Shown: piece after piece, positions 2,834 through 37,305 of the stretch
Position numbering within the stretch: position 1 is the first letter of the stretch
How the letters are laid out: every line of letters begins with the position of its first letter
Assembly (NCBI GenBank): GCA_963816185.1
Contig: CAWFJJ010000025.1
Location: 288,001 to 352,000, forward strand
From: Thermoanaerobaculia bacterium
GTDB lineage: Bacteria; Acidobacteriota; Thermoanaerobaculia; UBA5066
DNA: 64,000 nt
Direction of reading: 5' to 3'
Position numbers and translations under genes: made by a program
Notes under the pieces: generated by a model
Told to the model about the DNA's origin: nothing
Seen by the model: the letters and a program-made list of their open reading frames with translations, nothing else
Databases searched by the model: none

Positions 2834-4177
2834 GTGGGCGAGCGCCCCTTCCCTGCTCTTGATGTCCTGCGCGCGAGCTTCTTCGCCTCGCTGCCGCGGT
2901 ACGAGTACCTCGGCCCGCTCGGCCAGGGCGGGATGGGCTACGTCTTCAAGGCGATCGACCGCGAGCTGAACGAGGTCATCGCGATCAAGGTCCTGGCACG
3001 AGCCGCCGGGGAAGAGCGGGAAACGGTCCTCATGCGATTCAAGGGCGAGGTGAGCCTGAACCGGAAGATCAGCCATCCGAACGTCTGCCGCCTTCACGAC
3101 TACGGCGTTGCAGGAGACCTGCCGTACCTGACGATGGAGTTCGTCGACGGGCGCGACCTCGGCACCGTCATCGATCTGGAGGGGCCGGTTCCCGTGCGCA
3201 GGGCGCTTCGGATCCTCACGCAGCTCACGCGAGCGGTCGCGGCCGCGCACGCCGCGGACATCGTCCACCGCGACCTGAAGCCCGCGAACGTGATGGTGCG
3301 GCCATCAGGCGAGATCTCCGTTCTCGACTTCGGGCTCGCGCACGACACGACGCGCACGGACCCGCGAATCACGCGTGCCGGCGCGGCGGTCGGGACGCCG
3401 CATTACATGTCTCCCGAGCAGGTTCAGGGCCGCCTCGTGGACGAGCGAAGCGACATCTACGCCATCGGCGCCATCGCGTTCGAGATCCTGAGCGGCCGCC
3501 GGATGTTCACGGGGCGCACGTTCCTGTCGATCGCGAAGAAACATCTCGAAACGAAGGTTTCGCGAGCCACGCTCGAAGGGCGCGGCGTGCCTCGCGAGCT
3601 GGCGGCCACCGTTCTCCGATGTCTCGAGAAGAAGCCCGAGAATCGTTTTCCCTCCGCCGCCGCCCTTGCGGCGTCATTCGAGGCACTCGAGCGGATGCAG
3701 AAGCCGCGGGAACCCGCCGTCAAGCAGGCGGCGCCGGCCGCAGCGCGCGTGAAGACGGCCGTCCACCGGCGGAGCGCCATTCTGCCCACAGGGGCGCCCG
3801 GGCGACGGCCCGTCGTGCTCGTCGTGGACGACGAGGCGCCGGTGAGGGACCTCGTCTGCACTTACCTCAACCGCGGCGGGTTCGAGGCCGTGCCGTCGCC
3901 GTCGGGAGAAGACGCGCTGACGCTTCTCGAGACGCGCATGGTCGACCTCATCCTCATCGACGTGCTGATGCCCGGCGTCGACGGCTTCGACACCGTGAGG
4001 GTCCTGAAGTCGCGGCCGGAGCAGGCTCAGATCCCCGTCCTGTTCATGTCGGGCTTTCCGGAGAAGAACCGGGTGCTCTTCGCGGGGCAGACGGGCGCCG
4101 TGGACTTTCTCCCGAAGCCCCTCGACCTCAAATCCATGCTCGGGAAGGTGACCGAGATCCTCGGAAAGCCCGCCTGA
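2834..4177 (+). CDS. Hanks-type Ser/Thr protein kinase with C-terminal receiver domain
   Basis: LGQGGMG.V, AIK, HRDLKPAN, DFG, GTPHYMSPE; C-terminal VLVVDD..LIDVLMPG.DG..PKP. Confidence 0.92.
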   Translation: MGERPFPALDVLRASFFASLPRYEYLGPLGQGGMGYVFKAIDRELNEVIAIKVLARAAGEERETVLMRFKGEVSLNRKISHPNVCRLHDYGVAGDLPYLTMEFVDGRDLGTVIDLEGPVPVRRALRILTQLTRAVAAAHAADIVHRDLKPANVMVRPSGEISVLDFGLAHDTTRTDPRITRAGAAVGTPHYMSPEQVQGRLVDERSDIYAIGAIAFEILSGRRMFTGRTFLSIAKKHLETKVSRATLEGRGVPRELAATVLRCLEKKPENRFPSAAALAASFEALERMQKPREPAVKQAAPAAARVKTAVHRRSAILPTGAPGRRPVVLVVDDEAPVRDLVCTYLNRGGFEAVPSPSGEDALTLLETRMVDLILIDVLMPGVDGFDTVRVLKSRPEQAQIPVLFMSGFPEKNRVLFAGQTGAVDFLPKPLDLKSMLGKVTEILGKPA

Positions 4178-26076: not shown

Positions 26077-28789
26077 TCAGGACTTTCGCGCCGGCCGGCA
26101 GAAGACGAGGGACGTGTCGCGCGCGTAGAGCACGGGCACGGCCCAGTCCATGGGCTCGGCTCCTCTTGCGTACGAGACGGCGACGCGCGCTTCGCGAGCG
26201 GCCGCGCCCAGGCTGTGGCCTTTCGCGAGCGCCCAATAGAGATGTCGGGCGAACGCCGTGGCGGACGTGTCGAGCACCTTGTACTGGTTCGCGAGCACGG
26301 CCGGGATGCCCCCCGCGGCGAGAGCGGGCGCGACGCCGCGCAGGAACTCCGTCCGTCCTCCGCGCCCCGTCTCGCACGCGTTCAGGACGACGAGCTTCAA
26401 CGCGCGTCCGGCGAGGAGGCGAAGAACGCGATCCGTGTCGACGGCAATGGAACGCCCGCGCGTGTCCACGAGGAAGAGGGAGCCCGTCTTTTCCTTTTCG
26501 TCGAAGGTCCCGTGCCCCACGAAGTGGAGGACGTCGACGCGGCCCGCCGAGAGGCGCCGGTGGAGGCCCGCGGGCGAGGTGGACGCGAGGACCTCGAGAC
26601 GGACGAGGCCAGCCTTCACGAGCGGCTGGAGAGCGGCCCGAATGGCTGACGCCTCCTGCCGCGCCGCCACGGGCGCGGTGTCGTGCGGCTCGGCGAGGGC
26701 GACGAGGACGTGGAGCGGCCCGCGGCCCGGCGGAGGCGCGGTGGAGGGCGGCGCCCCGAAGACGCCGCGGACGAGGACGGCGTCGTCCGCGAGGAAGCGC
26801 CTCCGGGAGGAATCCCAGGCGAGCTCCCACGGCTTGTCGGCGATCCAGTCGAGACCCGGCGTGAAGACGACCTCGAGCGCGCCCTTCGCGGCCGTGCGCG
26901 CCTCGTCCCAGAGGCGCCGCACGGCTCCCGGGAAGAGCGTCTCGAAGAGGACGGCGCCATATTCGCGGAGCTCCTTCGCGGCGGGAAGGGGCTCGCCCCC
27001 GCCGCCGTCGAGGGCCGCGAGGACGCGCTCGTGCATCGCGATGATGACGCGCATGCGCTCTCCCGCGGCGCCGCCCTTCGTCTCGAACGGCTCGACGACG
27101 CGCGCTCCTCCGAAAGTCGCGAGAAGGTGCGTGGGCTCGCCTCCGCGGCCGCCCACGAGCACGAGCTCGAAACGGCGCGCGGCGCGCGGCGCGCGAGCGG
27201 AAGCGGAAGAAGAAGAGGGAGATTTTGCTGAAGAGGAAGAGGACGACGCGCTTCGCGCGGAATATTTCTTCTGATATGCGGCGGCCGCTTTGCGGCCGCC
27301 GATAGTAGAAAATCTTCTCCCCGGATGTCCGGTGTCAAGGGTCTTCAACCGCTGCGCGGCGCGCGAAGCGCGCCCTTGACTCCGGACATCCGGGGAAGAC
27401 GTGCTCTTCTTCTCTCTCTTTCCTTCTAAGAAATTCCTAATTCCCTCTCTCGTCTCCTTCTGGGCAAACAAGTTCAAATGGTGAACGATCGCGCCCGCGC
27501 CGGCGTTGCCGCCCGGCCCGAACCGAATGACGTCTTGCTCGGGCACCGGAGGGGCCGCGCCGAGGCGCGCGCCGCCCTCGGTGGGAACCACGAGGTCGTT
27601 CGGATCCTCGAAGAAGACTCCCGCGGCGGCGTCGAGGAGCCTGCGGGCCGCGCTGCCGCGCGGCTCGTAGCGCGCGACGGCGGCGGCGACGTCGTACGGC
27701 CGCGCCACGCCCGCGTTCAGCTTCTCCAGGAATCCACCGGCAGGATCCATCGCGGCGATTCCCGGCAGCGTGCCGCCGGCGCGGGAGGCCATCCACACGA
27801 GCGCCTCCGCCGCGAAGTCGAGCGAGAAGGCGAGAGAGCCCCCGGGGAACATCTCGCCGAGATTGGCGAGCCATGCGGCGAGCCGGTCCCAGCGCGCGGG
27901 CGAGGCGAGAGGAGTGCCCTCGTTCGGCGACGCGACGAGGAACACGCGGCTCACCCGTGGGAGCTCCCGGCGAGGAGGCGAGAAGGCGCGCGACGAGGCC
28001 GCCGCGCGAATGCGTCACGACGTCGAGTGAGGAGCCAGGAGAGAAGCCAAGAGACGAGTCGCGAAGGGCCTCGAGCATGGCCTTCACGTTCTCGCCCGGC
28101 GAGCGCCCCACGGTCAGGTGGTTGAACGCGAAGACACGCCCTTCATAGAGCTTCGAGAGAGCGTCGAACGCGCCGTCCTGCGCCAGGTCGGAGAACGCCG
28201 CGGAAGCGTGCGAGAACGTGCCGTGGAGAAAGAGGAGGTTCCTCGCCTGTGTCCGCGGCAGAGAGGACTTTGCGACGCGTGACGCGACGAGCTTCCCCGC
28301 AGAGACCGTGAGGCGCACGAGACCGAGCGGAACGTGGGCTTCTTCGAAACGCTTCTTCTCCCAGGCGCGCGCGAGCGCCGGCAGCAGGGCGCCGGCCACC
28401 GCTCCGGCGACCCGCAGGAAGAAGACGCGGACGACGGCGCCGGGACCGCGGCGGGCGGTCGGCTGAGGCGCGAGGCGCACCTCGAATCGATGAGACCCTC
28501 CTTCGATCGCGCTCGGGGCGTGAAACGTCAGTGCGCCCGACGTGTGGCGGGCCACGAGGACCCAACCCTCGGACCCAGGGGCTTCGACCCGGGCGTCGAG
28601 AGAACCGGGTCCGGCCCGCGCGCCGCGGAGCGGCCGTGCGGAGCGAACGCCTTCGAGCACGAGCTGTCCGTCCTCGAGGACGCGCGCGAGAAACGGGTCT
28701 GCCTCGGCCGCCCGCGCGCGTGCTCCCGCCGCGGGGGAGAGGACTTCCCAGCCGGGGCTCGCCGTGACGCGGATGCGCGGAGGCGGCAT
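26077..28789 (-). CDS. Alpha/beta-hydrolase (lipase-like) + CHAT protease fusion (frameshift ~27970)
   Basis: FLHGTFS, THSRGG, ASPNEGTPLA, NDLVVPT, HH in the N-half; PWE, LHFVGHG, LNACE in the C-half. Confidence 0.82.
27247..27395. repeat. Compound palindromic (REP/MITE-like) element inside CDS linker
   Basis: 23-bp inverted repeat 27319-27341 / 27373-27395 (22/23 match), 10-bp hairpin 27279-27301, GCGAAGC-type minihairpins 27247-27259 and 27358-27374. Confidence 0.75.
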
Positions 28790-28827: not shown

Positions 28828-29574
28828 TCATCCGAACTCGATCACGACCGGGCCGTGGTCGCTGGTCCCGAACTCTCGGTAGACGCGAGCCGCCACCGCC
28901 TCCGAGGCGAGCGCTTCGCTCGCGAGGACGTAGTCCAGGCGCCAGCCGATGTTGCGCTCCCTGAGCTGCCGCCACGGCGCCCACCACGTGAAAAGAGAGT
29001 CGTTTTCGGGGTCGAGAGCACGGCCCGTGTCCACGAGCCCCTGCGCGAGGATCTTCTCGACGAGCGCGCGCTCGTCGGGGCGCTGTCCGATGGCGCCCGC
29101 TTTCCGCTCTTTCGGGTGGACGTCGCGGTCCGTGAGCGCGACGTTGAGGTCGCCGCAAAGGAGGAGCTTCCGTCCTTCCGCCCGCGCCGCGGCTGCGCGG
29201 CGTTCGAGGGCTTCGAGGAACGCGACCTTGGCGGCGAAGTCCTTCCCGCCGTTCGGAACGTAGAGGGACGCGACCGTGAAATCCGGAAGGTGTGCCTCGA
29301 CGACCCGCGTCTCATGGTCGAAGTCCGGATGCGTGAAGGCGACGTCCCCCCCGAACGTCTCCTTGCGAAGAAGCAGCCCGACGCCCGAGTAGCCCTTGTG
29401 TCCGTGCCAGTACGTCTTGTACCCCTCGGGCGCGACGAGGGAGAGCGGAAGCTGCTCCTGGGCCGCCTTCAGCTCCTGCAGGCAGAGGACATCGGGCTTC
29501 TCGCGCTCGAGCCACTCCACGACCTGCAGCTCCCGCGCCCGGATTCCGTTCACGTTCCAAGTGACGACTTTCAT
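28828..29574 (-). CDS. xth: Exodeoxyribonuclease III
   Basis: TWNVNGIRAR, LQELK, YSGV, YVPNG, GDLN, FTWW, GWRLDY, SDH.PV. Confidence 0.95.
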   Translation of the reverse strand: MKVVTWNVNGIRARELQVVEWLEREKPDVLCLQELKAAQEQLPLSLVAPEGYKTYWHGHKGYSGVGLLLRKETFGGDVAFTHPDFDHETRVVEAHLPDFTVASLYVPNGGKDFAAKVAFLEALERRAAAARAEGRKLLLCGDLNVALTDRDVHPKERKAGAIGQRPDERALVEKILAQGLVDTGRALDPENDSLFTWWAPWRQLRERNIGWRLDYVLASEALASEAVAARVYREFGTSDHGPVVIEFG

Positions 29575-29578
29575 CGCG

Positions 29579-30279
29579 TCAGCACGCGAACCTCTCGGAG
29601 AACTGCCGCGCAAGCTCGGGAGCCGCGCCGTCCTCCTCGTGCTTGAAGAAGACGTAGGCCTCGGTCCACGGCTGTTCGCTCGACGCGCGCCGCCCACGCG
29701 TCGAGGTCCGTCGCGCTGTAATCCTCGCGGCGCAGGCGGAGATATCCCCAGGCCGCCGTGGCCGTGAGCGGCGTCGTGCCCTTTTCGTCGTCGGCGATGC
29801 AAAGGGCCGCGCCGGCGGACTTGAGGAGTGCGAAGACCTCCTCGTCGAGCCACGTCGGATTTCGGAATTCGAAGGCCGCCTTCACGTCCTTCGGCAGCAG
29901 CGCGAGGAACGCGTCGAGTCGCGGCAGGTCCTTCTTCAGGTTCGGCGGCAGCCCGAAGAGGAGCGGCCCGAGGCGGCCGCCGAGGTGCCGCGCCGACCCG
30001 ATGAGAAAGCGCATCTCCTCGGACGTCTCCTTGAGGCGCTTGATGTGCGTGATGCGCTGCGAGGCCTTGAGCGCGAACTGAAACGTCTCCGGGACCTGCG
30101 CCGCCCAGCCCGCGAGAAGCTCGGGCCTCGGCATCCGGTAGAAGGTGTTGTTGATCTCGACCGCGGGAAGCTTCGTCGCGTAGAAGCCCAGGCGTCCTTT
30201 CGACGGGGAGATCCTCCGGGTAGAACGCGCCGGTCCAGCCGTCGTAGCTGAAGCCGCTCGTGCCCGCGAGAACGCGCAT
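29579..30279 (-). CDS. DUF72 (YecE-like) protein, two frameshifts
   Basis: GTSGFSY..W...FYP, VEINNTFYR.P, FALKA..ITH, FEFR, YLRLR, YVFFKHE across frames. Confidence 0.85.
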
Positions 30280-30287
30280 GCCGGATT

Positions 30288-31127
30288 CTAGGTCGCGCGC
30301 TTCTTCCGTGGCGTGGACGGGACGCTCCGGACCACGAGCGCGGTGACGTTGTCGGGCGCGCCGGCCTCGTTCGCGGTGTCGACGAGGGCCCGGACGGCGT
30401 CCCCCGGCTCGCGCGACGCCAGGATCGTGGCGATCGAGAGCTCGTCCACGACGCCGTGGAGGCCGTCCGTGGCGAGAAGAAGCGTCGAGCCCGGCTGCCA
30501 CGGCCTCCAGAAAAGATCGACGTCGACCTCGTCCCGGGCCCCGAGGGAGCGCGTGATGAGGTGATGAAAGGGCAGCCGGGCCACGTCTTCCTGCTTCACG
30601 AGGCCGCGTCGAACCTCGTCGGCGAAGCAGGTGTGGTCGCTGCTGATCTGCTCGAGGCGCCCGTCCTGGAAGAGGTAGGCGCGGCTGTCGCCCACGTTGC
30701 CGAACAGGACCCACTCTCCGAGGACGAGAGCCGCCACGAGAGTCGTTCCCATCGGCGGAAGAGGGGCGGCGCCGGGATCCGGTCCCGCCTTCTCGGGCGC
30801 GGCGAGGATTCCGGCCCGCCTTACGGCCGTGTTCGCGGTCGTCATCGCGCGCCGGAAGACCTCGGCGCTCTCTCCGGGCGCCGTGTAGAAAGTCGAAAAG
30901 AGCACCTCGATCGCGAGCTTGGAGGCGACCTCCCCGCGAGCATGCCCGCCCATTCCGTCCGCCACGGCGAAGAGCGCCCCGCGCGTGCCGAGGCTCGCCC
31001 GCGGGCCGGCCAGCGCGACCAGCGTTTCGGGATCTCCCGCGTAGTCCTCGTTGCCCGGCCGAAGGCGGCCGCGGTCCGACAGGCTCGCCCACTGAAGCCG
31101 GCCGTCTGTTTCGGGATCGGGTTTCAC
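30288..31127 (-). CDS. PP2C-family Ser/Thr protein phosphatase
   Basis: GR.R..NED, VADGMGG, MGTT, VGDSRAY, DH, ATDGL, DNVT; GTG start chosen from TACCAT 8 nt upstream (alternative start 31163). Confidence 0.92.
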   Translation of the reverse strand: MKPDPETDGRLQWASLSDRGRLRPGNEDYAGDPETLVALAGPRASLGTRGALFAVADGMGGHARGEVASKLAIEVLFSTFYTAPGESAEVFRRAMTTANTAVRRAGILAAPEKAGPDPGAAPLPPMGTTLVAALVLGEWVLFGNVGDSRAYLFQDGRLEQISSDHTCFADEVRRGLVKQEDVARLPFHHLITRSLGARDEVDVDLFWRPWQPGSTLLLATDGLHGVVDELSIATILASREPGDAVRALVDTANEAGAPDNVTALVVRSVPSTPRKKRAT

Positions 31128-31163
31128 GCCCGGGAATGGTAGCCCCCGGGCGGTCTCGATCAT

Positions 31164-31517
31164 TCAGGCCTTCCTCTTCGGCGCCCAGCGCAGGATCTCG
31201 ACCTTCTCCATCGTCATGAGAACGCCGCAGCCCGCTTCGTCGAGGATGGGCTCGATGCGCTCGAGGAACCCTCGAATCTTCTCCTCCGTGTCCACGATCT
31301 CGACGACGATCGGAAGGTCCTCGGAGAGCTCGACGAGCCGGGCGCGGTGAACAACGCTGGACGCCCCGTAAGACTCGATGCCCCGGAGGACCGTCGCGCC
31401 CGACAGGCCGGCCGCCCGCGCTTCACGCACGAGGACCTCGAACAGCGGCTGATGACGGGCGCGGTCCAGCTCGCCGATATGGATGCGCAGCAGCTTCGCG
31501 GTCGTGACGTCCTTCAT
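31164..31517 (-). CDS. DUF190 (PII-like) protein
   Basis: LLRIHIGE.D, GATVLRGI..YG, LS.DLP.VVEIVD; overlaps crcB stop, the usual context. Confidence 0.9.
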   Translation of the reverse strand: MKDVTTAKLLRIHIGELDRARHQPLFEVLVREARAAGLSGATVLRGIESYGASSVVHRARLVELSEDLPIVVEIVDTEEKIRGFLERIEPILDEAGCGVLMTMEKVEILRWAPKRKA

Positions 31518-31897
31518 GCGCCGATCCTCCCCAACGAACGGCCGAGAAACGCTCCGACGAGCCCGAAGAAGACCGACCCGCCCACGTAGAACGACGTGCG
31601 GAGGAGGTCTCTGACGGTCAGAAGGCCGAGCGACTCCCACGCGAAGGACGAAAAGGTCGTGAAGCCTCCGAGAATCCCGACCATGATGAACGTGCGCGCC
31701 TCGGGCGAGAGCGCGGCGCGCTCGAGGCCGAGAGCGCCGACGAGGCCGATCGCGAAGCACCCGAGCAGGTTCACGGTGAACGTTCCGACGGGGAAGGAGC
31801 CGGGGAAGGTTCTCTGAAGGCTCGTCGCCATCACGTAGCGGGCGACCGAGCCGATGCCGCCGCCGACGAAGACAAGGAGCAGGAGAGAGGGCCGCAT
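31514..31897 (-). CDS. crcB: Fluoride channel Fluc/CrcB
   Basis: GGGIGS..RY, FP.GTF.VN..G, GILGGFTTFSSF. Confidence 0.95.
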   Translation of the reverse strand: MRPSLLLLVFVGGGIGSVARYVMATSLQRTFPGSFPVGTFTVNLLGCFAIGLVGALGLERAALSPEARTFIMVGILGGFTTFSSFAWESLGLLTVRDLLRTSFYVGGSVFFGLVGAFLGRSLGRIGA

Positions 31898-31931
31898 GCG
31901 TGCGTGCCGTTATACTCGAATCCGCAAAGAC

Positions 31932-31989
31932 GGCGATGGAGTCCGCCGCAAACGCCTTCGGGCTGATGACTCCTACCTCAGGTAGGAGT
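31932..31989 (+). ncRNA. Fluoride riboswitch (crcB motif) with SD-sequestering expression platform
   Basis: GGCGATGGAGTCCGCC..AAACGCC-TTCG-GGCTGATGACTCCTAC matches the consensus; pseudoknot GGAGTC/GACTCC; alternative hairpin ACTCCTACC-TCA-GGTAGGAGT. Confidence 0.92.
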
Positions 31990-31994
31990 TACCC

Positions 31995-33692
31995 GTGTCT
32001 CAGCAGCAGGAAGATGCAGCGCTCGGGGCCATCGCGGAGGTCGCGGAAGAGCGACGCGACCAGGCGATTGCCGCGGAGGCGCGCGAGGCCTCCCGCTCGC
32101 TCGCGGCGGCGCGTTTCAACGTCGCGGTGCTCGGCCAGTTCAAGCGCGGCAAGAGCACGCTCATCAACGCGCTCCTGAAGACGGCGCTGCTGCCCACCGA
32201 CGTCGTGCCGCTGACGACCGCGATCACAATCGTCGAGTACGGCCCGAAGGCCGTGGCGCGCGTGCGATACGACGACGGCCGCGAGGAGACGAGCGGCGTC
32301 GAGCGCCTGGCCGAGTACGTGTCCGAGGAGGGCAACCCCGGCAACCGCAAAGGGGTGCAGGCTGTCATCGTCGAGCTCCCGGCGCCGCTCCTCGCGCGCG
32401 GAGTGCGGTTGGTCGACACTCCGGGTATCGGCAGCGTGTTCGCGCCGAACTCGGAGGCCACACGCCGCTTCCTGCCGCGCATCGACATCGCGATCGTCGT
32501 GCTCGGATCGGACCCGCCGATCTCGGGCGAGGAGCTGACGATGGTGCGGGAGGTGGCCCCCCTCTGCGGCGGCCTCCGCGTCGTCCTCAACAAGTCGGAC
32601 CGGGTCCGCGAAAAGACCCGTGAGAAGGCGGAGACGTTCACGCGCACGGTCCTGAAAGGCGCTCTCGGCCGTGACCCGGGCCCGGTGCTGCACACCTCGG
32701 CCAGGACCGCGCTCGAGGCCGGGAGCGAGGACGGCGTCGACGCGTTGCGAGACTGGATCGAAGGCCTCGCCGGCGACGCGGCGGACGACCTCGCGCGCTC
32801 CTCGGCGCGAAGAGCCGTGCGTCACCTCGCGTCACGCCTGCTCCACGAGATCGAGATCGAGCGTGTGGCGCTCACGCAGCCGATCGAGGAGCTGGAGGAA
32901 CGCGTCGAGCGCTTCCGGCACGCGATGCGCGACATCGAGGACCTCGCGTTCGCGGTGCTGACCCGGCTCCGCGACGAGACCTCCATCGATTGGAAGGCCT
33001 GGCAGGACCACCGGCGCGAGCTGGAAGCGAGCTGGACGGAGCGGGTGGTCGAAGCCGTCCGGACGGACCTCGGCCGGCCGCCGGGGCGCTCGCGGGCGGC
33101 GATGCGAAGGACGGCTGCTGAAATCACCCGAAAGCTCGTGGCGGAGGGAGTCGAGGCCTGGCGGGGGGAAGCGGTGGCGGCGTTCGACCAGCACCGGACC
33201 CATAAGCTCACCCGGGCGACGAGCGAGGCGAATCGGCTGATCGCGCGGGTGGCCGCGGCCGCGGCCGAGGCTTTCGGGACCGAGGTCGAAGAGTTCGAGC
33301 CGGAGCCGCTCGACGTCGAGAGTCCGACGGGGGTCTTCGAGTTCGTGGAGGCTGCGGCCGCCCTGGACGCCTCAGCCTGGCTCGTGCCGCTCACCGACGC
33401 CTTCCTGGTCCGGCCGGCAGTCACGGCGCGGGCGGCCTCGCGAGCGCGCCGGACCGCCCGTGAGTGGTTCCGTCGAAACCTCTACGAGGTCGACCGCCAC
33501 CTGACGGACGGGCTCGACCTGATCACCCGTCACGTCGACGCCGAGGTGCGAAGGCGGCTCGAAGCCCTCCGGGACGAGGTTCTCGTCGCGGTCGAGGAGG
33601 GGCGAAGGACGCGGGAGGAGGGCCTCCGCGCCGTCGAGAAGGCGCTCGCCCGGCTCGCGGCGCAGCGCGAGCGCCTCGAGGCCGCGCGCTAA
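31995..33692 (+). CDS. Bacterial dynamin-like GTPase
   Basis: G1 GQFKRGKST, G2 PLT, G3 DTPG, G4 NKSD; long helical C-terminus; AGGAG 6 nt upstream of GTG. Confidence 0.9.
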   Translation: MSQQQEDAALGAIAEVAEERRDQAIAAEAREASRSLAAARFNVAVLGQFKRGKSTLINALLKTALLPTDVVPLTTAITIVEYGPKAVARVRYDDGREETSGVERLAEYVSEEGNPGNRKGVQAVIVELPAPLLARGVRLVDTPGIGSVFAPNSEATRRFLPRIDIAIVVLGSDPPISGEELTMVREVAPLCGGLRVVLNKSDRVREKTREKAETFTRTVLKGALGRDPGPVLHTSARTALEAGSEDGVDALRDWIEGLAGDAADDLARSSARRAVRHLASRLLHEIEIERVALTQPIEELEERVERFRHAMRDIEDLAFAVLTRLRDETSIDWKAWQDHRRELEASWTERVVEAVRTDLGRPPGRSRAAMRRTAAEITRKLVAEGVEAWRGEAVAAFDQHRTHKLTRATSEANRLIARVAAAAAEAFGTEVEEFEPEPLDVESPTGVFEFVEAAAALDASAWLVPLTDAFLVRPAVTARAASRARRTAREWFRRNLYEVDRHLTDGLDLITRHVDAEVRRRLEALRDEVLVAVEEGRRTREEGLRAVEKALARLAAQRERLEAAR

Positions 33693-33697
33693 GCTCC

Positions 33698-35480
33698 ATG
33701 CTCTTGACCAGAGGGTCTCATCGATTTCGTCCTGGCGCCGCGGCGGCGTTCGTTCTCGGCGTCGCCGCGCTCGTGCGGTGCGCGTCGGCGCCGCCCGCGC
33801 CCTCAAGGCGCACTGTGGTCATCTCGTTCGACGGGCTCGGCGGCGTGAGGCTGAACGAGCTCCTTTCGCAGGGGAAGCTGACGGCCGGCGGCTTTTCGGC
33901 GATCGCCGAGCGCGGCCTTCTCGCGGGGCGCGCCATCGACGTCACGCCGTCCCTGACGCCCGCGGCTCACATCGCCGCGATCACGGGCGCGCCGCCTGCG
34001 CGGAACGGGATCGTCGGAAATCGTTTCCGCGAGCCGGGCAGACCCTTCGGCGCCGAGACGACGGGGTTTCTCGCGCCCATCGAAACGGAGACGCTCTGGG
34101 AGGCCGCGCGCCGCCAGGGACATCGCGTCGGCGTGCTCCTCTATCCGGGCGCGGACGGCACGAATGCACGGCGGCGCGGCGACTTCGGCCTGACCTGGCC
34201 CGATCGGCCGGCGCAGGCGTCGGCCTTCGTGACACTCGACAGCGGGCATTGGACCGGCGCCGGCGGGACGGACGCGGCCTCGTTCTCCCCGGTCCGCCGG
34301 ACGACGGTGGACGTGGCGGCGCCGGGCGGCCGCACGGTGCGCCTCGACATTCGCGCGCGCGACACGACGAACGACGGCGTCGTCGACTACGACACGCTGG
34401 TCGTGGCGCGCCCGGACGGAGCTGCGGCGGAAGTCAAGCGCCTCGGCTGGTTCGCGGTCCAGGCCCCGGGCAAGGACGGACCTTTCACCGCATGGTGCCG
34501 CGTCGTCACGCTGGAGCCGACGCTCGCGCGCGTCAACGTCTACGTGGGCGGCTTCTTCGCCGTGCCCGCCTATCCCGCGGCCTTCCGCTCCCGATTCGAG
34601 GCGGCGCTCGGCGGGTGGCCGGGGCCGCCGGATCCGGCGCTCGTGCGTGCGGGTCCGCCCGGGGAGGGCGATGCCGCCGGCGAGGAGCAGGCCCAGCGCC
34701 TCGCGGAGTACCTCACGCGGGCGATCGTCTTCGCGATCCGGAGCGAGCAGCTGGGACCTCCTCGTTGCGTACCAGCCCCTCGTGGACGAGATCGAGCACC
34801 ACTTCGAGCCCGGACCGCGCGGCGGCTCGGCCGAGGCGATCGTGCGCGCCTTCCAGACCGCCGACCGTTGCGTCGCCGCGATGCTCGCCGCCCTCACGGC
34901 GCGCGACACGCTCCTCATCCTCAGCGACCACGGAATGGTCCCGCTCGAGAAGTCGGTCGACCTCGAGCGGTATCTCGAGGAGAAGAGCTGGACGATCGCG
35001 CGGAAGGCCGGGGCCCAGGGCGGGCCGCATGTCGTGCAGGTCTGCGCGTCGAGCGGGATCGCGCACGTGTACGTCGACCCCGCCCTCGCGCCCGCGGCGC
35101 GCGCCGAGGCAGCGGCGGCTCTCGCCCGAGACCTCGCGGGCCTTTCGGCGCTGCCCGGAAGCCTCGTCGACGCGATCGTGCCTCGCGCCGCCCTCGGCTC
35201 GCTCGACCTCGACAACCCGCGGTCGGGCGACGTCGTCGTCCTTCTCCGTCCGGGGTTCGAGTTCGTGCGCGGAAGGCCTTCCGTCCTCTCGGTCCCGACG
35301 AATCTCGGGGGCCACGGCTACCGAAACGCGACGCCCGTCCTCGACGCGTCGTTCGCCGCGATCGGCCCGGGAATCGAGCCCTCGCGCCCCGCGACCGTCT
35401 CGCTCCTCGAGGTCGCCTCGCGCGCGGCGCGCGCCCTCGGCATCGATCCTCCGCGCGGCGCCGCGCCGGCCGGGCGCTGA
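33698..35480 (+). CDS. Alkaline phosphatase superfamily nucleotide pyrophosphatase/phosphodiesterase, probable lipoprotein (frameshift ~34745)
   Basis: ISFDG, PSLT..AH...TG....NGIVGN, D..EH, SDHGM, GHGY; N-terminal hydrophobic stretch ending in Cys. Confidence 0.85.
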
Positions 35481-35482
35481 CC

Positions 35483-36712
35483 TCAGAACAGAGGCGTCGG
35501 AACGTTTCCCCAGCCGGTTCCCGGACCCAGGTCCTTCATCTCCTGGACGGCGAGATCGTGCATGTCCACGTCCACGAGGAACCGCGGCGTGCGCGTTGCG
35601 TTGATCGCGAAGAGCGACGCCGGCGCCGGAGATTCCCTGGGTGTCTCGACGCTGAGGAAGATCAGCCGTCGGATCACGCCGTCAGCGGCGGTGCCCGGTG
35701 CCGTGGCTCCTCCTGCGTGATGCATCGCGTGGCCGCCCTGGAGGTGCCGGAAGGGATGGAAGATCCAGTCCGCGATCATCGGCATGGTCTGGTGATGCTC
35801 GTAGAGCCGCCACTCGGGCCCCGTGTCCGCGATCATTCCCTGCATGACGTACTGCCGCGGAACGACGTACACGAGGATCGGCCCCGGCGTCCTTGACGCG
35901 CGAGCCTTGACCTCGGGCAGCTCGAGCAAGGCAGACATGCGGTGCTCGAGCATCGCCCCGTCAGCCGGAAGGATGGCAAGTGCGGTGATTCGTCCGCTCG
36001 ACCAGAGAGGTAGCCGGTTCACCGTGTAGGCACGCAGGGCGAAGGCGCCCCCCACGGCGACGACGAAGAGGATCGCCAGATCGAACAGCGTCCGAAAGGC
36101 CGCGGATTTCGGAAGCGGAAGGCGGCCGAGGATGCGTTCCAGCCCACGCGGGAGAAACATCCCGGTCCGCGCCATGTATTCGCGGTACCGGTCGCCGAAC
36201 TGCTTCACCATCCGGCGCTCCTCGTCCCGCGCCAGCAGGACGTACAGCCCGATCATGGCGGTCCAGAGGACGATGGTCAGGAATCGCGGCCAGAGGATGG
36301 CGAGACCCAGCGCCGCAAACGAGAGGGCCATGTATTGCGGGTGGCGGATCCACCTGTAGAGCCCGCCCAACGCCGGTCCCCGGTGGAAGAGTTTGTGGGA
36401 GTACACCTGGCCGGCGCAGACGAGGAACACGAGCGTGCCGCCGACGAACAGCACCGAGCCGGCGACGCGGACCGCCTTCAGGAAGAGCCCCGGCGGCAGG
36501 ACCATGTGGGGCAGGAAGAAAGCCGCCAGCCAGCGGGACGCCGGCCACTTCGCGAGGAAGAGCAGGACCGGGTTGAAGACAGCGTAGAAGAACGCCGCGA
36601 AGGGGCTGATCATGACCAGCACTTCGAGCGCGATGACGAAGTACAGGAGGATCACGCCGCCGAGAACCGGGTGAGGCCTGGCGGCCGCGCGGTCTTCGTC
36701 TCGTTGCGTCAT
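35483..36712 (-). CDS. Isoprenylcysteine carboxylmethyltransferase/PEMT family membrane methyltransferase with C-terminal extension
   Basis: GLYRWIRHPQY, EE..M...FG..Y.EY...T.MFLP; multiple TM segments. Confidence 0.82.
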   Translation of the reverse strand: MTQRDEDRAAARPHPVLGGVILLYFVIALEVLVMISPFAAFFYAVFNPVLLFLAKWPASRWLAAFFLPHMVLPPGLFLKAVRVAGSVLFVGGTLVFLVCAGQVYSHKLFHRGPALGGLYRWIRHPQYMALSFAALGLAILWPRFLTIVLWTAMIGLYVLLARDEERRMVKQFGDRYREYMARTGMFLPRGLERILGRLPLPKSAAFRTLFDLAILFVVAVGGAFALRAYTVNRLPLWSSGRITALAILPADGAMLEHRMSALLELPEVKARASRTPGPILVYVVPRQYVMQGMIADTGPEWRLYEHHQTMPMIADWIFHPFRHLQGGHAMHHAGGATAPGTAADGVIRRLIFLSVETPRESPAPASLFAINATRTPRFLVDVDMHDLAVQEMKDLGPGTGWGNVPTPLF

Positions 36713-37269
36713 CAGGGGTCTCCGTCGAGATCAGTCGGCTTTCGACGGGCGCGGCGGATGTCCCTCGGCGGGTCCGTCGAGGCCAACGCCTGGTTCAGGC
36801 AGGTGAGCGAGGAGAGGACTCCGGCGCGGGACCTTCGGGGAATGGCCGACATGAGCCTCCTGAAGCGATCACGGCTGGAGCGCTCGACGTTCTTCGCGAC
36901 CCGCGTGCCACGTGTCGTCAGCGAGAGGAGCCGTTCGCGCCCGTCGTCTGCCGAGCGGCTCTGGACCAGGTGGCCCGCGCTCTCCATCCGCCGGCACAGC
37001 CGGGCCACGTTGCTCTTGTCGATTCCGAGGGCCCGCCCCAGCTCGCGTTGGGTCGCGAGCTCGCGCTTCCGCGCCGTTTCGAGCAGGACCATGAGCGCAT
37101 GGGCGTGGGAAACCGCAACGGGATGGCCGCAGGGTGTCTGATCGCCCGCGAGAAGCCCGGCGGACCTTGTGAAGGCCTGGATCAGGCGTCTCAGGTCGGC
37201 GCCTTCGAGCTCTGATGCCGGGTTGGGGGCCGGCCGCGATCGGGCTCGTCGAGGGCTCACGGTCGTCAT
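36712..37269 (-). CDS. MarR family transcriptional regulator
   Basis: TQRELG..LGIDKSNV.R....ME..G, D.RE..L.LT..G; TPCG motif. Confidence 0.88.
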   Translation of the reverse strand: MTTVSPRRARSRPAPNPASELEGADLRRLIQAFTRSAGLLAGDQTPCGHPVAVSHAHALMVLLETARKRELATQRELGRALGIDKSNVARLCRRMESAGHLVQSRSADDGRERLLSLTTRGTRVAKNVERSSRDRFRRLMSAIPRRSRAGVLSSLTCLNQALASTDPPRDIRRARRKPTDLDGDP

Positions 37270-37275
37270 CGTACC

Positions 37276-37305
37276 AGCAGATGGTTGCGTGCGCAACTAT
37301 CTGCT
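37276..37305. promoter_or_regulatory. Putative MarR operator
   Basis: 14-2-14 inverted repeat AGCAGATGGTTGCG-TG-CGCAACTATCTGCT (13/14) just upstream of the marR ATG. Confidence 0.7.

Follow-up and report, generated by a model that had tools for sequence, protein, structure and literature searches.

A fluoride riboswitch aptamer sits in front of a dynamin-like protein gene, and the pairing recurs across soil Acidobacteriota

Why would a fluoride riboswitch lie beside a fluoride channel gene, yet face away from it and towards a dynamin-like GTPase? This question is raised by a stretch of 64,000 nucleotides, which we call the window, from a Thermoanaerobaculia bacterium (GenBank assembly GCA_963816185.1, contig CAWFJJ010000025.1, positions 288,001 to 352,000 of the forward strand). 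The initial annotation, made from the sequence alone, placed an aptamer at 31932-31976 on the plus strand, pointed out that crcB-DUF190 is on the minus strand, described a 9-bp alternative hairpin that buries the Shine-Dalgarno (SD) site of the dynamin gene, and inferred that a fluoride-induced membrane-remodelling GTPase forms part of an uncharacterised fluoride-stress module. We find that what it described is really there. Its reading of the locus is also supported, in that each step survived testing as far as sequence tools can take it.

The absence of a covariance-model match had been named beforehand as grounds for rejecting the riboswitch, but the Rfam Fluoride model (RF01734) matches window positions 31923-31982 on the plus strand at 52.2 bits against a gathering score of 34 (E 1.3e-11), over model positions 1-64 of 64. 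This is the only match in the window, with both strands searched, and also the only match in the 5.09-Mb genome; the 31932-31976 of the initial annotation is its core. The helices can be read directly from the sequence: P1 is GGCG (31932-35) with CGCC (31944-47), P2 is GCC (31954-56) with GGC (31961-63) around a UUCG loop, and the P1-loop GGAGU (31938-42) is perfectly complementary to ACUCC (31969-73), which is the pseudoknot. These columns are invariant in 20 aligned aptamers. Seven nucleotides or so before the 5' end of the aptamer lies TTATACT (31910-31916, plus strand), a possible -10 box that is invariant in the window and in genomes G009 and G017. It was seen by eye only, as a sigma-70 consensus scan called 0 sites.

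The aptamer cannot be in the crcB mRNA, because it is on the opposite strand. The crcB gene, encoding the Fluc fluoride channel, occupies 31514-31897 on the minus strand (PF02537, 1.3e-25), has no aptamer of its own, and begins 25 nt from the aptamer. It is followed on the minus strand by DUF190, a P-II-like protein gene at 31164-31520 that overlaps the crcB stop (PF02641, 3.5e-33), and by a PP2C-type protein phosphatase gene at 30288-31163 (PF13672, 1.4e-15; PF00481, 1e-08), the third gene of this divergent operon, an 88.6% identical orthologue of which follows DUF190 in G017. On the plus strand the aptamer instead leads to an open reading frame at 31995-33692, with a GTG start, encoding a 565-aa dynamin-like protein (DLP; Dynamin_N, 4.4e-24).

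The leader of this gene has the anatomy of a translational ON switch. The strand that forms the pseudoknot is also the anti-SD strand: ACTCCTACC at 31969-77 is followed by a TCA loop and by GGTAGGAGT at 31981-89, which contains the AGGAG SD site (31984-88) 6 nt before the GTG at 31995, exactly at the coordinates first reported. The minimum-free-energy fold of 31923-32010 contains this helix extended to 11 pairs, at -34.3 kcal/mol with a z of -2.49 (1 of 200 shuffles folds as well), and the centroid fold contains it too. No terminator-like site was found in 31400-32400, and there is no U-tract terminator. The same tail-to-SD pairing recurs in relatives with compensatory changes (UACC/GGUA, UGCA/UGCA, UACG/CGUA, UGAC/GUC), which is more than chance. 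All 13 direct cases in relatives have 10-18 nt between the aptamer and the start codon and a tail-to-SD or tail-to-start helix, and by our count by eye about 20 of 24 related leaders fold with the CUCCU tail paired to a downstream GGAG strand, either next to the start codon or followed by a U-run. Fluoride binding and fluoride-dependent activation were not assayed here; the helix is strong and might need co-transcriptional kinetics to be escaped, and Rho-dependent or mixed control is not excluded. The DLP body was replaced by a distant allele while the riboswitch and the first ~7 codons stayed about 90% identical to G009 and G017, which we take as selection to keep a DLP under this switch.

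Misassembly and a linkage confined to this contig had likewise been set out in advance as outcomes that would overturn the reading, and neither applies. Eight public sequencing runs contained the stretch, each in small shares only, and no RNA run was among them. Short contigs from four of these runs bridge the crcB/aptamer/DLP junction and an indel at 34749, but hold nothing on expression. A 241-nt contig of run X3 is identical over 31854-32094, although X3 may be the source sample of this assembly, and a 225-nt contig of run X1, from another study, is about 94% identical over 31827-32051.

A survey of how often this DLP follows the riboswitch, also proposed at the outset, shows that the linkage is recurrent. 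Among 41 close relatives, 14 of 14 genomes with a strong DLP match have an aptamer, and 15 of 22 aptamers lead to this DLP, 13 of them directly upstream and 2 upstream of crcB-DUF190-DLP, making it the commonest target in the window's own order. The divergent arrangement of crcB and aptamer-DLP is shared by six other genomes of the genus beside the window's own. In an even draw of 151 genomes of the phylum, 28 carry this DLP, 49 carry an aptamer and 25 carry both; in 24 of the 28, a Rfam-scored aptamer lies upstream on the same strand and contig within 5 kb, 14 directly and 10 through an operon (cross-referenced by hand). About half of the aptamer-bearing genomes (24 of 49) therefore aim an aptamer at this DLP, although related genomes are not independent samples. 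The remaining 4 of 28 show no linked aptamer: G097 has its aptamers on another contig, G103 has none, G134 is a weak match, and the DLP of G157 lies at a contig edge. A complete census of RF01734 hits against this DLP clade within 10 kb over all GTDB genomes was not made, nor was a rooted tree of BDLPs built to test whether riboswitch-linked DLPs form one clade.

Homologous loci in public records give a similar picture. A search with the single protein found no relative, but a search with an alignment did, and of the 80 best homologue loci 51 hold at least one aptamer by a covariance model of our own (R1), built after a regular-expression screen proved to undercount. R1 over-calls relative to Rfam, such that its counts are upper estimates: the Terriglobales aptamers that lead operons containing a second DLP (DLP-A; we call the clade of the window protein DLP-B) score below the Rfam cut-off in loci L072 (29.3 bits), L048 (27.2) and L104 (33.1) and are not listed in L092, and two further R1 hits, L103 2575-2643 and L114 7622-7691, were not listed at the gathering threshold. 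Gene calls in this survey are also heuristic; L057, for example, was counted as direct but has crcB between the aptamer and the DLP. However, 12 of 12 direct-upstream cases that we re-checked pass the Rfam cut-off. Three of five loci without an aptamer that we followed up also have no linked aptamer (L060, L066, L099). Other aptamers in the same loci precede enolase, pyrophosphatase, Na/H exchangers and MutS_V proteins, the classic fluoride regulon, and in L061 a PP2C follows an aptamer-led gene.

The neighbors of the DLP in these loci suggest a possible, though doubtful, alternative, in which the DLP is not a general membrane-repair factor but a dedicated accessory of Fluc and DUF190 that could organise, insert or cluster Fluc dimers or couple a P-II-like DUF190 signal to the membrane. 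Synteny is tight and recurs in several gene orders: crcB-DUF190-DLP-B-DLP-A in G029 and G037, DLP-A-crcB-2xDUF190-DUF190-DLP-B in Terriglobales, and DLP followed by crcB in G026 and G038. DUF190 ends 3-6 nt before DLP-B in L072, L092 and L148, and within 4 kb of the DLP there is a crcB in 47 of 80 loci, a DUF190 in 50 and a DLP-A in 46. The cultured, non-pathogenic strain Acidicapsa dinghuensis 4GSKX carries the full operon (aptamer-eno-dlpA-crcB-DUF190-dlpB-dlpC) inside a 55-kb region with 12 aptamers. On the other hand, 33 of 80 loci have no crcB within 4 kb, in 12 direct-upstream loci the aptamer leads straight to the DLP alone, and in the window the DLP and crcB are in separate, divergent transcription units. 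There is no interaction evidence of any kind; a complex prediction of the DLP with DUF190 returned no answer (score 0.00), which is neither support nor evidence against binding.

It is also conceivable, but very unlikely, that the plus-strand riboswitch mainly serves crcB, with fluoride-dependent transcription or translation across the 97-nt intergenic region modulating the overlapping crcB promoter and the DLP as a passenger. The lack of a crcB aptamer, the 25-nt spacing, such that the two promoters must overlap, and conservation of the layout in six other genomes of the genus would fit this view. However, in other lineages the same DLP is aptamer-led with no crcB nearby, the nearest DLP homologue (L044) has separate aptamers for crcB and for the DLP, and only about 15% of Flucs are riboswitch-controlled at all (PMC11139923).

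What kind of protein does the switch precede? Dynamin_N (PF00350) scores 85.8 bits against a cut-off of 27, and the G1 GQFKRGKS (47-54), T74, G3 DTPG (141-144) and G4 NKSD (199-202) are invariant or at least 90% conserved in 58 sequences. The AF2 model (pLDDT 88.1, pTM 0.74) predicts long helices over residues 246-564, and its top Foldseek hits are the bacterial dynamin BDLP, IniA, Cj-DLP1/2 and mitofusins, all with probability 1.00, although global TM is only 0.3-0.4. The best structural match is Nostoc punctiforme BDLP (PDB 2J68/2J69; E 4.4e-18, 659 aligned columns), also a top sequence-profile match (5.4e-27), which shares the G domain plus helical neck and trunk; identity is 18% and TM 0.32-0.36, perhaps reflecting a different hinge state or shorter trunk, and the window protein is about 130 aa shorter with no strongly hydrophobic paddle. 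BDLP has no known inducing signal. Mycobacterial IniA (PDB 6J72; E 1.1e-17, TM 0.39-0.40, 18% identity) is of similar size (561-606 aa) and fold and shares the concept of a DLP induced by a specific chemical stress, in its case isoniazid, as the PDB molecule name also states; it is controlled by a protein-regulated operon (iniBAC), not a riboswitch, and has no link to fluoride. The best sequence-profile hit is the Campylobacter jejuni DLP1/DLP2 pair (PDB 5OWV; 5owv_C, 3.5e-27), which the DLP-A and DLP-B pairs of the Terriglobales, G029 and G037 operons resemble. The window's genome has no DLP-A partner, its other three Dynamin_N matches covering only the P-loop, and here the DLP acts alone or as a homo-oligomer. 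No transmembrane segment is predicted: the most hydrophobic 19-mer (454-472, maximum KD 1.38) is below the transmembrane range, and its position next to the low-confidence tip loop (428-459) is the only hint of a membrane-binding tip, neither membrane binding nor nucleotide-dependent self-assembly having been measured. A scan with the PADLOC library gave only remote matches to the anti-phage 'Dynamins' models, LeoA (46.3 bits, residues 8-65 only) and LeoBC (39.4 bits); this library has no curated cut-off, and the scores alone do not settle membership in that system. A defence gene, or an otherwise unrelated gene with incidental adjacency, is nevertheless a remote prospect and close to refuted, as the adjacency recurs in 24 of 28 genomes across many genera with different expression platforms, and the neighbors are fluoride genes, not leoABC or other defence genes.

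Metal-fluoride complexes poison GTPases, and GDP-AlF4-/MgF3- trap dynamin-family G domains. The fluoride regulon includes over-produced targets such as enolase and pyrophosphatase (PMC11139923), and the cell might similarly make more of a fluoride-sensitive DLP, or a fluoride-tolerant isoform. We consider such compensation unlikely, because this genome has only one full Dynamin_N protein, the riboswitch-controlled one, and there is no housekeeping paralogue to back up; the clade is also largely confined to fluoride loci. The suggestion in the initial annotation that metal-fluoride inhibition of GTPases explains the link is not supported by anything we could test. A more speculative and equally unlikely possibility is that fluoride acts twice, the riboswitch inducing the DLP and Mg- or Al-fluoride, a gamma-phosphate mimic, then locking its G-domain dimer in a transition-state-like assembly. 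The protein would become a fluoride-triggered membrane tether or sealant, working with Fluc and DUF190 as one membrane module against HF influx in acid, Al-rich soils, and the DLP/DUF190/Fluc cluster would be a dedicated fluoride-stress organelle-like patch, not a set of independent genes.

With good though not complete confidence, we propose that a canonical fluoride riboswitch acts as a translational ON switch for a solo bacterial dynamin-like GTPase, and probably for the phosphodiesterase gene that follows it. Without fluoride, ACUCCUACC in the 3' strand of the aptamer would pair with GGUAGGAGU across the UCA loop (31969-31989) and hide the SD site; with fluoride, the Mg-F-stabilised pseudoknot would hold that strand, and the GTG at 31995 would be used. 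In this view the protein belongs to a DLP clade that is a regular member of the fluoride-riboswitch regulon in Acidobacteriota and several other soil phyla, usually together with crcB, DUF190 and often a second DLP. Our data demonstrate the aptamer, the competing helix and its covariation, the fold class of the protein (from a predicted structure), and the recurrent genomic linkage, whereas the fluoride response and its translational mode are inferred, from anatomy and from covarying hairpins, and the function of the protein is inferred too. Nothing here says what the DLP does. Our preferred but tentative guess is repair or remodelling of the cytoplasmic membrane under HF/F- stress, by analogy with stress-induced BDLPs such as IniA and DynA.

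The riboswitch itself is of a known type, and its use of the 3' pseudoknot strand as the anti-SD strand is the standard logic of ON switches; what differs is the gene it precedes, while crcB next door is left without an aptamer. The published lists of associated genes that we consulted name Fluc, CLC-F, Na/H antiporters, pyrophosphatase, HAD phosphatases, enolase, formate hydrogen lyase, chorismate mutase, mutS and K+/Cl- transport, and mention neither a GTPase nor a dynamin (PMC11139923, PMC2864571), nor, in PMC11139923, DUF190; PMC7266159 and PMC5473149 were also consulted on fluoride. Literature searches found no paper linking fluoride riboswitches with dynamins or dynamin-like proteins, although they did not extend to supplementary tables or to the primary gene list of Baker et al. 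2012 (PMC4140402), where the association could sit. Papers combining fluoride riboswitches with GTPases and crcB, crcB with dynamin, or DUF190 with fluoride were unrelated, and none of those listed for bacterial dynamins and fluoride concerned riboswitches. Bacterial DLPs are widespread but few have a known physiological trigger; here a whole clade is tied by a ligand-specific RNA sensor to one defined stress, such that its function becomes directly testable, and the Acidicapsa strain offers an immediate experimental system. For fluoride biology, the pairing adds a large mechanochemical GTPase, together with DUF190 proteins, to a regulon so far described as exporters, pH and phosphate homeostasis genes and over-produced target enzymes, pointing to an unstudied part of the bacterial fluoride response. 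It also bears on efforts to engineer fluoride tolerance for organofluorine degradation.

Downstream of the DLP, a type I phosphodiesterase / nucleotide pyrophosphatase gene (33698-35480, plus strand) starts 6 nt after the DLP stop and is probably co-transcribed. It is frameshifted near 34750 in this assembly: the intact orthologue, L100:5689-7482, has PF01663 at 4.6e-35, tblastn splits the window copy into frame 2 (33692-34750) and frame 3 (34752-35474), and a related contig of run X4 lacks one base at 34749. On the other side of the locus, a long ORF at 28828-31092 on the minus strand was considered as a gene and dropped, as it is an open frame running through several real genes (Exo_endo_phos, DUF72, PP2C).

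The window contains exactly one Rfam match at gathering threshold, the Fluoride riboswitch aptamer (RF01734) at 31923-31982 on the plus strand, which scores 52.2 bits against a cut-off of 34 (E 1.3e-11) and covers the whole model. A covariance-model hit was something the initial annotation had staked its claim on, and this match is also the only one in the 5.09-Mb, 94.9%-complete genome. Pfam places crcB at 31514-31897, DUF190 at 31164-31520 and a PP2C phosphatase at 30288-31163, all on the minus strand, whereas a 565-aa Dynamin_N protein (the dynamin-like protein, DLP) is encoded on the plus strand at 31995-33692 (E 4.4e-24). The initial annotation had described a hairpin formed by the 3' pseudoknot strand that buries the Shine-Dalgarno (SD) site of this gene, and its observation held: the strands lie exactly where it had placed them, with ACTCCTACC at 31969-77, a TCA loop, GGTAGGAGT at 31981-89, AGGAG at 31984-88 and GTG at 31995. 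The frame opens only at 31986, so GTG 31995 is the only start that keeps the P-loop. The minimum-free-energy fold of 31923-32010 contains this helix extended to 11 pairs, at -34.3 kcal/mol with z -2.49, and 1 of 200 shuffles folds as well. No terminator-like site exists in 31400-32400. The P1-loop GGAGU (31938-42) is complementary to ACUCC (31969-73), so the pseudoknot and the anti-SD helix compete for the same strand. Misassembly had been named in advance as a way in which the claim could fail, but short contigs from the soil runs of two other studies bridge crcB, the aptamer and the DLP start, one of them identical (although it may come from the source sample) and one about 94% identical, so this is not a misassembly.

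A profile of ten homologues of the DLP hits Cj-DLP2 (5owv_C, 3.5e-27), Nostoc BDLP (2j68, 5.4e-27) and IniA (6j72, 9.7e-20) in the PDB. An AlphaFold2 model built on a 58-sequence alignment has pLDDT 88.1 and pTM 0.74, and shows a G domain followed by long helices and a low-confidence loop at 428-459. Foldseek ranks BDLP (4.4e-18), IniA (1.1e-17), Cj-DLP1/2 and mitofusins first, all with probability 1.00, but global TM is only 0.3-0.4. The G1, G3 and G4 motifs and T74 are invariant or at least 90% conserved. The protein has no transmembrane-grade hydrophobic stretch, and its most hydrophobic 19-mer (454-472) lies at the predicted tip. A search with PADLOC gave only remote LeoA/LeoBC matches. 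The genome has no other full Dynamin_N protein, and because of this it is unlikely that the riboswitch serves to compensate for a poisoned GTPase.

Among 41 genomes (the window's own genome, its genus and its order), 14 have a strong match to the DLP and 19 have an aptamer, with 22 aptamers in all, and all 14 DLP genomes have an aptamer. Thirteen of the 22 aptamers lie directly upstream of the DLP start codon, at 10-18 nt (genomes G000, G003, G006-G010, G011 twice, G017, G019, G026 and G038). Two lead crcB-DUF190-DLP-B-DLP-A operons (G029 and G037), in which DLP-B denotes the clade of the window protein and DLP-A a second dynamin-like protein. Four precede crcB alone (G033, G034, G039, and G025, which is flagged unpublished), two precede Na/H exchangers (that of G029 was confirmed by Pfam, and that of G037 has the same N-terminus), and the target of the one in G021 is unclear. 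In this order, then, the DLP and not crcB is the usual target. The aptamer-led DLP of G038, a 51%-complete genome, is interrupted, as a 93-aa ORF is followed by one TGA inside the match (loci L015/L021). In G011 there is a second, different aptamer-DLP cassette (locus L004, 3485-3558), with the same N-terminal sequence in G007 (locus L003, 1108-1181), which lies ~190 nt from a tRNA gene and may be a transferred cassette.

The divergent layout of the window, with crcB-DUF190(-PP2C) on one side and aptamer-DLP on the other, recurs in G006, G008, G009, G010, G017 and G019. A DNA alignment of window 31800-32260 with G009 (locus L006) and G017 (locus L007) shows about 90% identity from the crcB 5' end through a TTATACT box, the aptamer, the hairpin, the GTG and about seven codons, after which similarity collapses, with a 36-nt indel and 33-35% protein identity. 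This looks like an in-situ exchange of the DLP body for a distant allele under an unchanged riboswitch. The nearest allele is that of locus L044, at 50% identity.

Restriction of the linkage to this one contig had likewise been set out beforehand as grounds for rejection, and a survey of its frequency was called for. With the alignment as query, the genome collection holds at least 585 relatives, and the best 80 loci are mostly Acidobacteriota but, as labelled in their records, also include Binatia, Verrucomicrobiia, Gemmatimonadales, Methylomirabilia, Rokubacteria, Limnocylindrales and several Myxococcota. A covariance model that we built from 20 aptamers (R1) finds 70 matches at E <= 0.1 in these 725 kb. 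With a 24-bit floor and heuristic gene calls, an aptamer lies directly upstream of the DLP in 15 of the 80 loci and upstream in a same-strand gene string in 25. In 4 loci it lies upstream but with a called minus-strand ORF between, in 7 there are aptamers elsewhere in the locus only, and in 29 there is no aptamer in the locus. Rfam confirms 12 of 12 re-checked direct cases above its cut-off. Many of the 29 blanks are truncated views, as 24 of them show DLP-A and 18 show crcB upstream, often running off the locus edge. Of five blanks followed into their genomes, two have the aptamer just beyond the flank (L116 and L087) and three have none linked (L060, L066 and L099).

The variant aptamers that lead the Terriglobales operons (L048:109-168, L072:68-128, L092:102-162 and L104:752-816) are below the 34-bit Rfam cut-off, at 29.3 (L072), 27.2 (L048) and 33.1 bits (L104), or, in the case of L092, not listed, while two others pass at 42.2 and 40.9 bits. 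The former have GGUG...CACC in P1 and GUUGG instead of GAUGG, but keep the pseudoknot strands and sit in front of DLP-A operons. They are likely a sub-threshold variant that Rfam-based censuses miss.

As an unbiased check, we applied Rfam's own model to an even draw of 151 genomes of the phylum (105 genera). Aptamers occur in 49 genomes, with 72 matches in all, the DLP occurs in 28 genomes at E <= 1e-20, and both occur in 25. When the two tables were cross-referenced by hand, the aptamer was found upstream on the same contig and strand in 24 of those, within about 150 nt in 14 and at 0.6-4.8 kb in 10. The linkage is not unique to this contig. Related genomes are not independent, and so counts are given without a statistical test. 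The four exceptions are G097 (aptamers on another contig), G103, G134 (a weak match) and G157 (DLP at a contig edge).

In Terriglobales the gene string consists of the aptamer, DLP-A (698 aa, Dynamin_N), crcB, a double DUF190, a single DUF190, DLP-B and often an AAA/STAND-like 262-aa protein. This ~250-260-aa P-loop protein, which has weak Pfam hits, follows DLP-B in many Terriglobales loci (L048:5681-6469 and homologues), is present in 40 of the 80 loci and sometimes has its own aptamer (L085:7618-7688, L079:8358-8428). In the cultured Acidicapsa dinghuensis 4GSKX (genome G041, locus L148) the aptamer (37.4 bits by Rfam) is followed on one strand by enolase, DLP-A, crcB, a Cys-rich 188-aa protein, 2xDUF190, DUF190, DLP-B, a third Dynamin_N protein of 706 aa and a HEAT/zinc-ribbon protein. 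That genome has 14 Rfam Fluoride matches, 12 of them clustered in ~55 kb at 776.9-832.4 kb of one contig (C12), and the rest of this island was not annotated. Given this synteny, a dedicated Fluc/DUF190 accessory role for the DLP is a serious alternative to the function that we favor. Other aptamers in the 80 loci precede enolase, pyrophosphatase, Na/H exchangers, MutS_V proteins and SAICAR synthase and, judged by the N-terminus only, hydrogenlyase-subunit-like membrane proteins, which is the classic fluoride regulon (PMC11139923). In locus L061 two aptamers lie back to back, 24 nt apart, at 3418-3488 (-) and 3512-3576 (+). One leads to the DLP and the other to a 781-aa beta-propeller/phosphoesterase protein followed by PP2C, which also follows DUF190 in the window. 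Control of crcB by promoter interference and a defence role for the DLP are both unlikely, given the recurrence without crcB and the fluoride context.

Leaders in front of the DLP use two standard solutions, both built on the invariant ACUCCU tail. The first is sequestration of the SD or start codon (the genus labelled g1, G026/G038, L046, L054, L064, L097 and others), and the second is a hairpin plus U-run terminator (L078, L103 and L114, and also the crcB-led operons of G029 and G037). Beyond CUCCU the helix covaries, as ACC/GGU, GCA/UGC, ACG/CGU and GAC/GUC. By visual count, about 20 of 24 leaders fold with the tail paired to a downstream GGAG strand. That different platforms lead to the same gene argues that the regulatory link itself is under selection.

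Our best reading is that of a fluoride-dependent translational ON switch for a solo DLP, and probably for the phosphodiesterase gene that starts 6 nt after its stop. In the orthologous G003 locus that gene overlaps the DLP stop by ATGA. The interpretation in the initial annotation, that the riboswitch gates translation of a fluoride-induced membrane-remodelling GTPase, is supported in its regulatory part as far as sequence tools can take it. The aptamer, the competing helix and the recurrent linkage are findings of the analysis, whereas the operation of the switch is read from them and the function of the protein is not shown. We favor membrane repair or remodelling under HF/F- stress, by analogy with stress-induced BDLPs. 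The riboswitch and the protein fold are each ordinary members of known families, and what appears new is their systematic coupling and the DLP/DUF190/Fluc module. We found no paper that links fluoride riboswitches, crcB or DUF190 with dynamin-like proteins, and neither a 2024 review of fluoride resistance (PMC11139923) nor the 2010 discovery paper contains the words GTPase or dynamin, although a bare listing in the 2012 paper that first listed the associated genes, or in supplementary material, cannot be excluded. The phosphodiesterase/nucleotide pyrophosphatase gene itself (33698-35480, plus strand) is split into two frames near 34750 relative to the intact G003 orthologue. A ~95% related soil contig lacks one base at 34749, and the break is therefore either a recent frameshift or an assembly error specific to this genome.

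Neighbors of the locus in the window include a CHAT-domain protein, a PEMT/ICMT-like membrane methyltransferase and a MarR regulator (26077-27954, 35483-36712 and 36712-37296, all on the minus strand), and a protein with a similar N-terminus to the methyltransferase also lies next to the DLP locus in G003. In genome G013, an Rfam SECIS_3 match (locus L016:126-184, minus strand; 66.3 bits against a cut-off of 63) lies next to a 58-aa fragment similar to the DLP.
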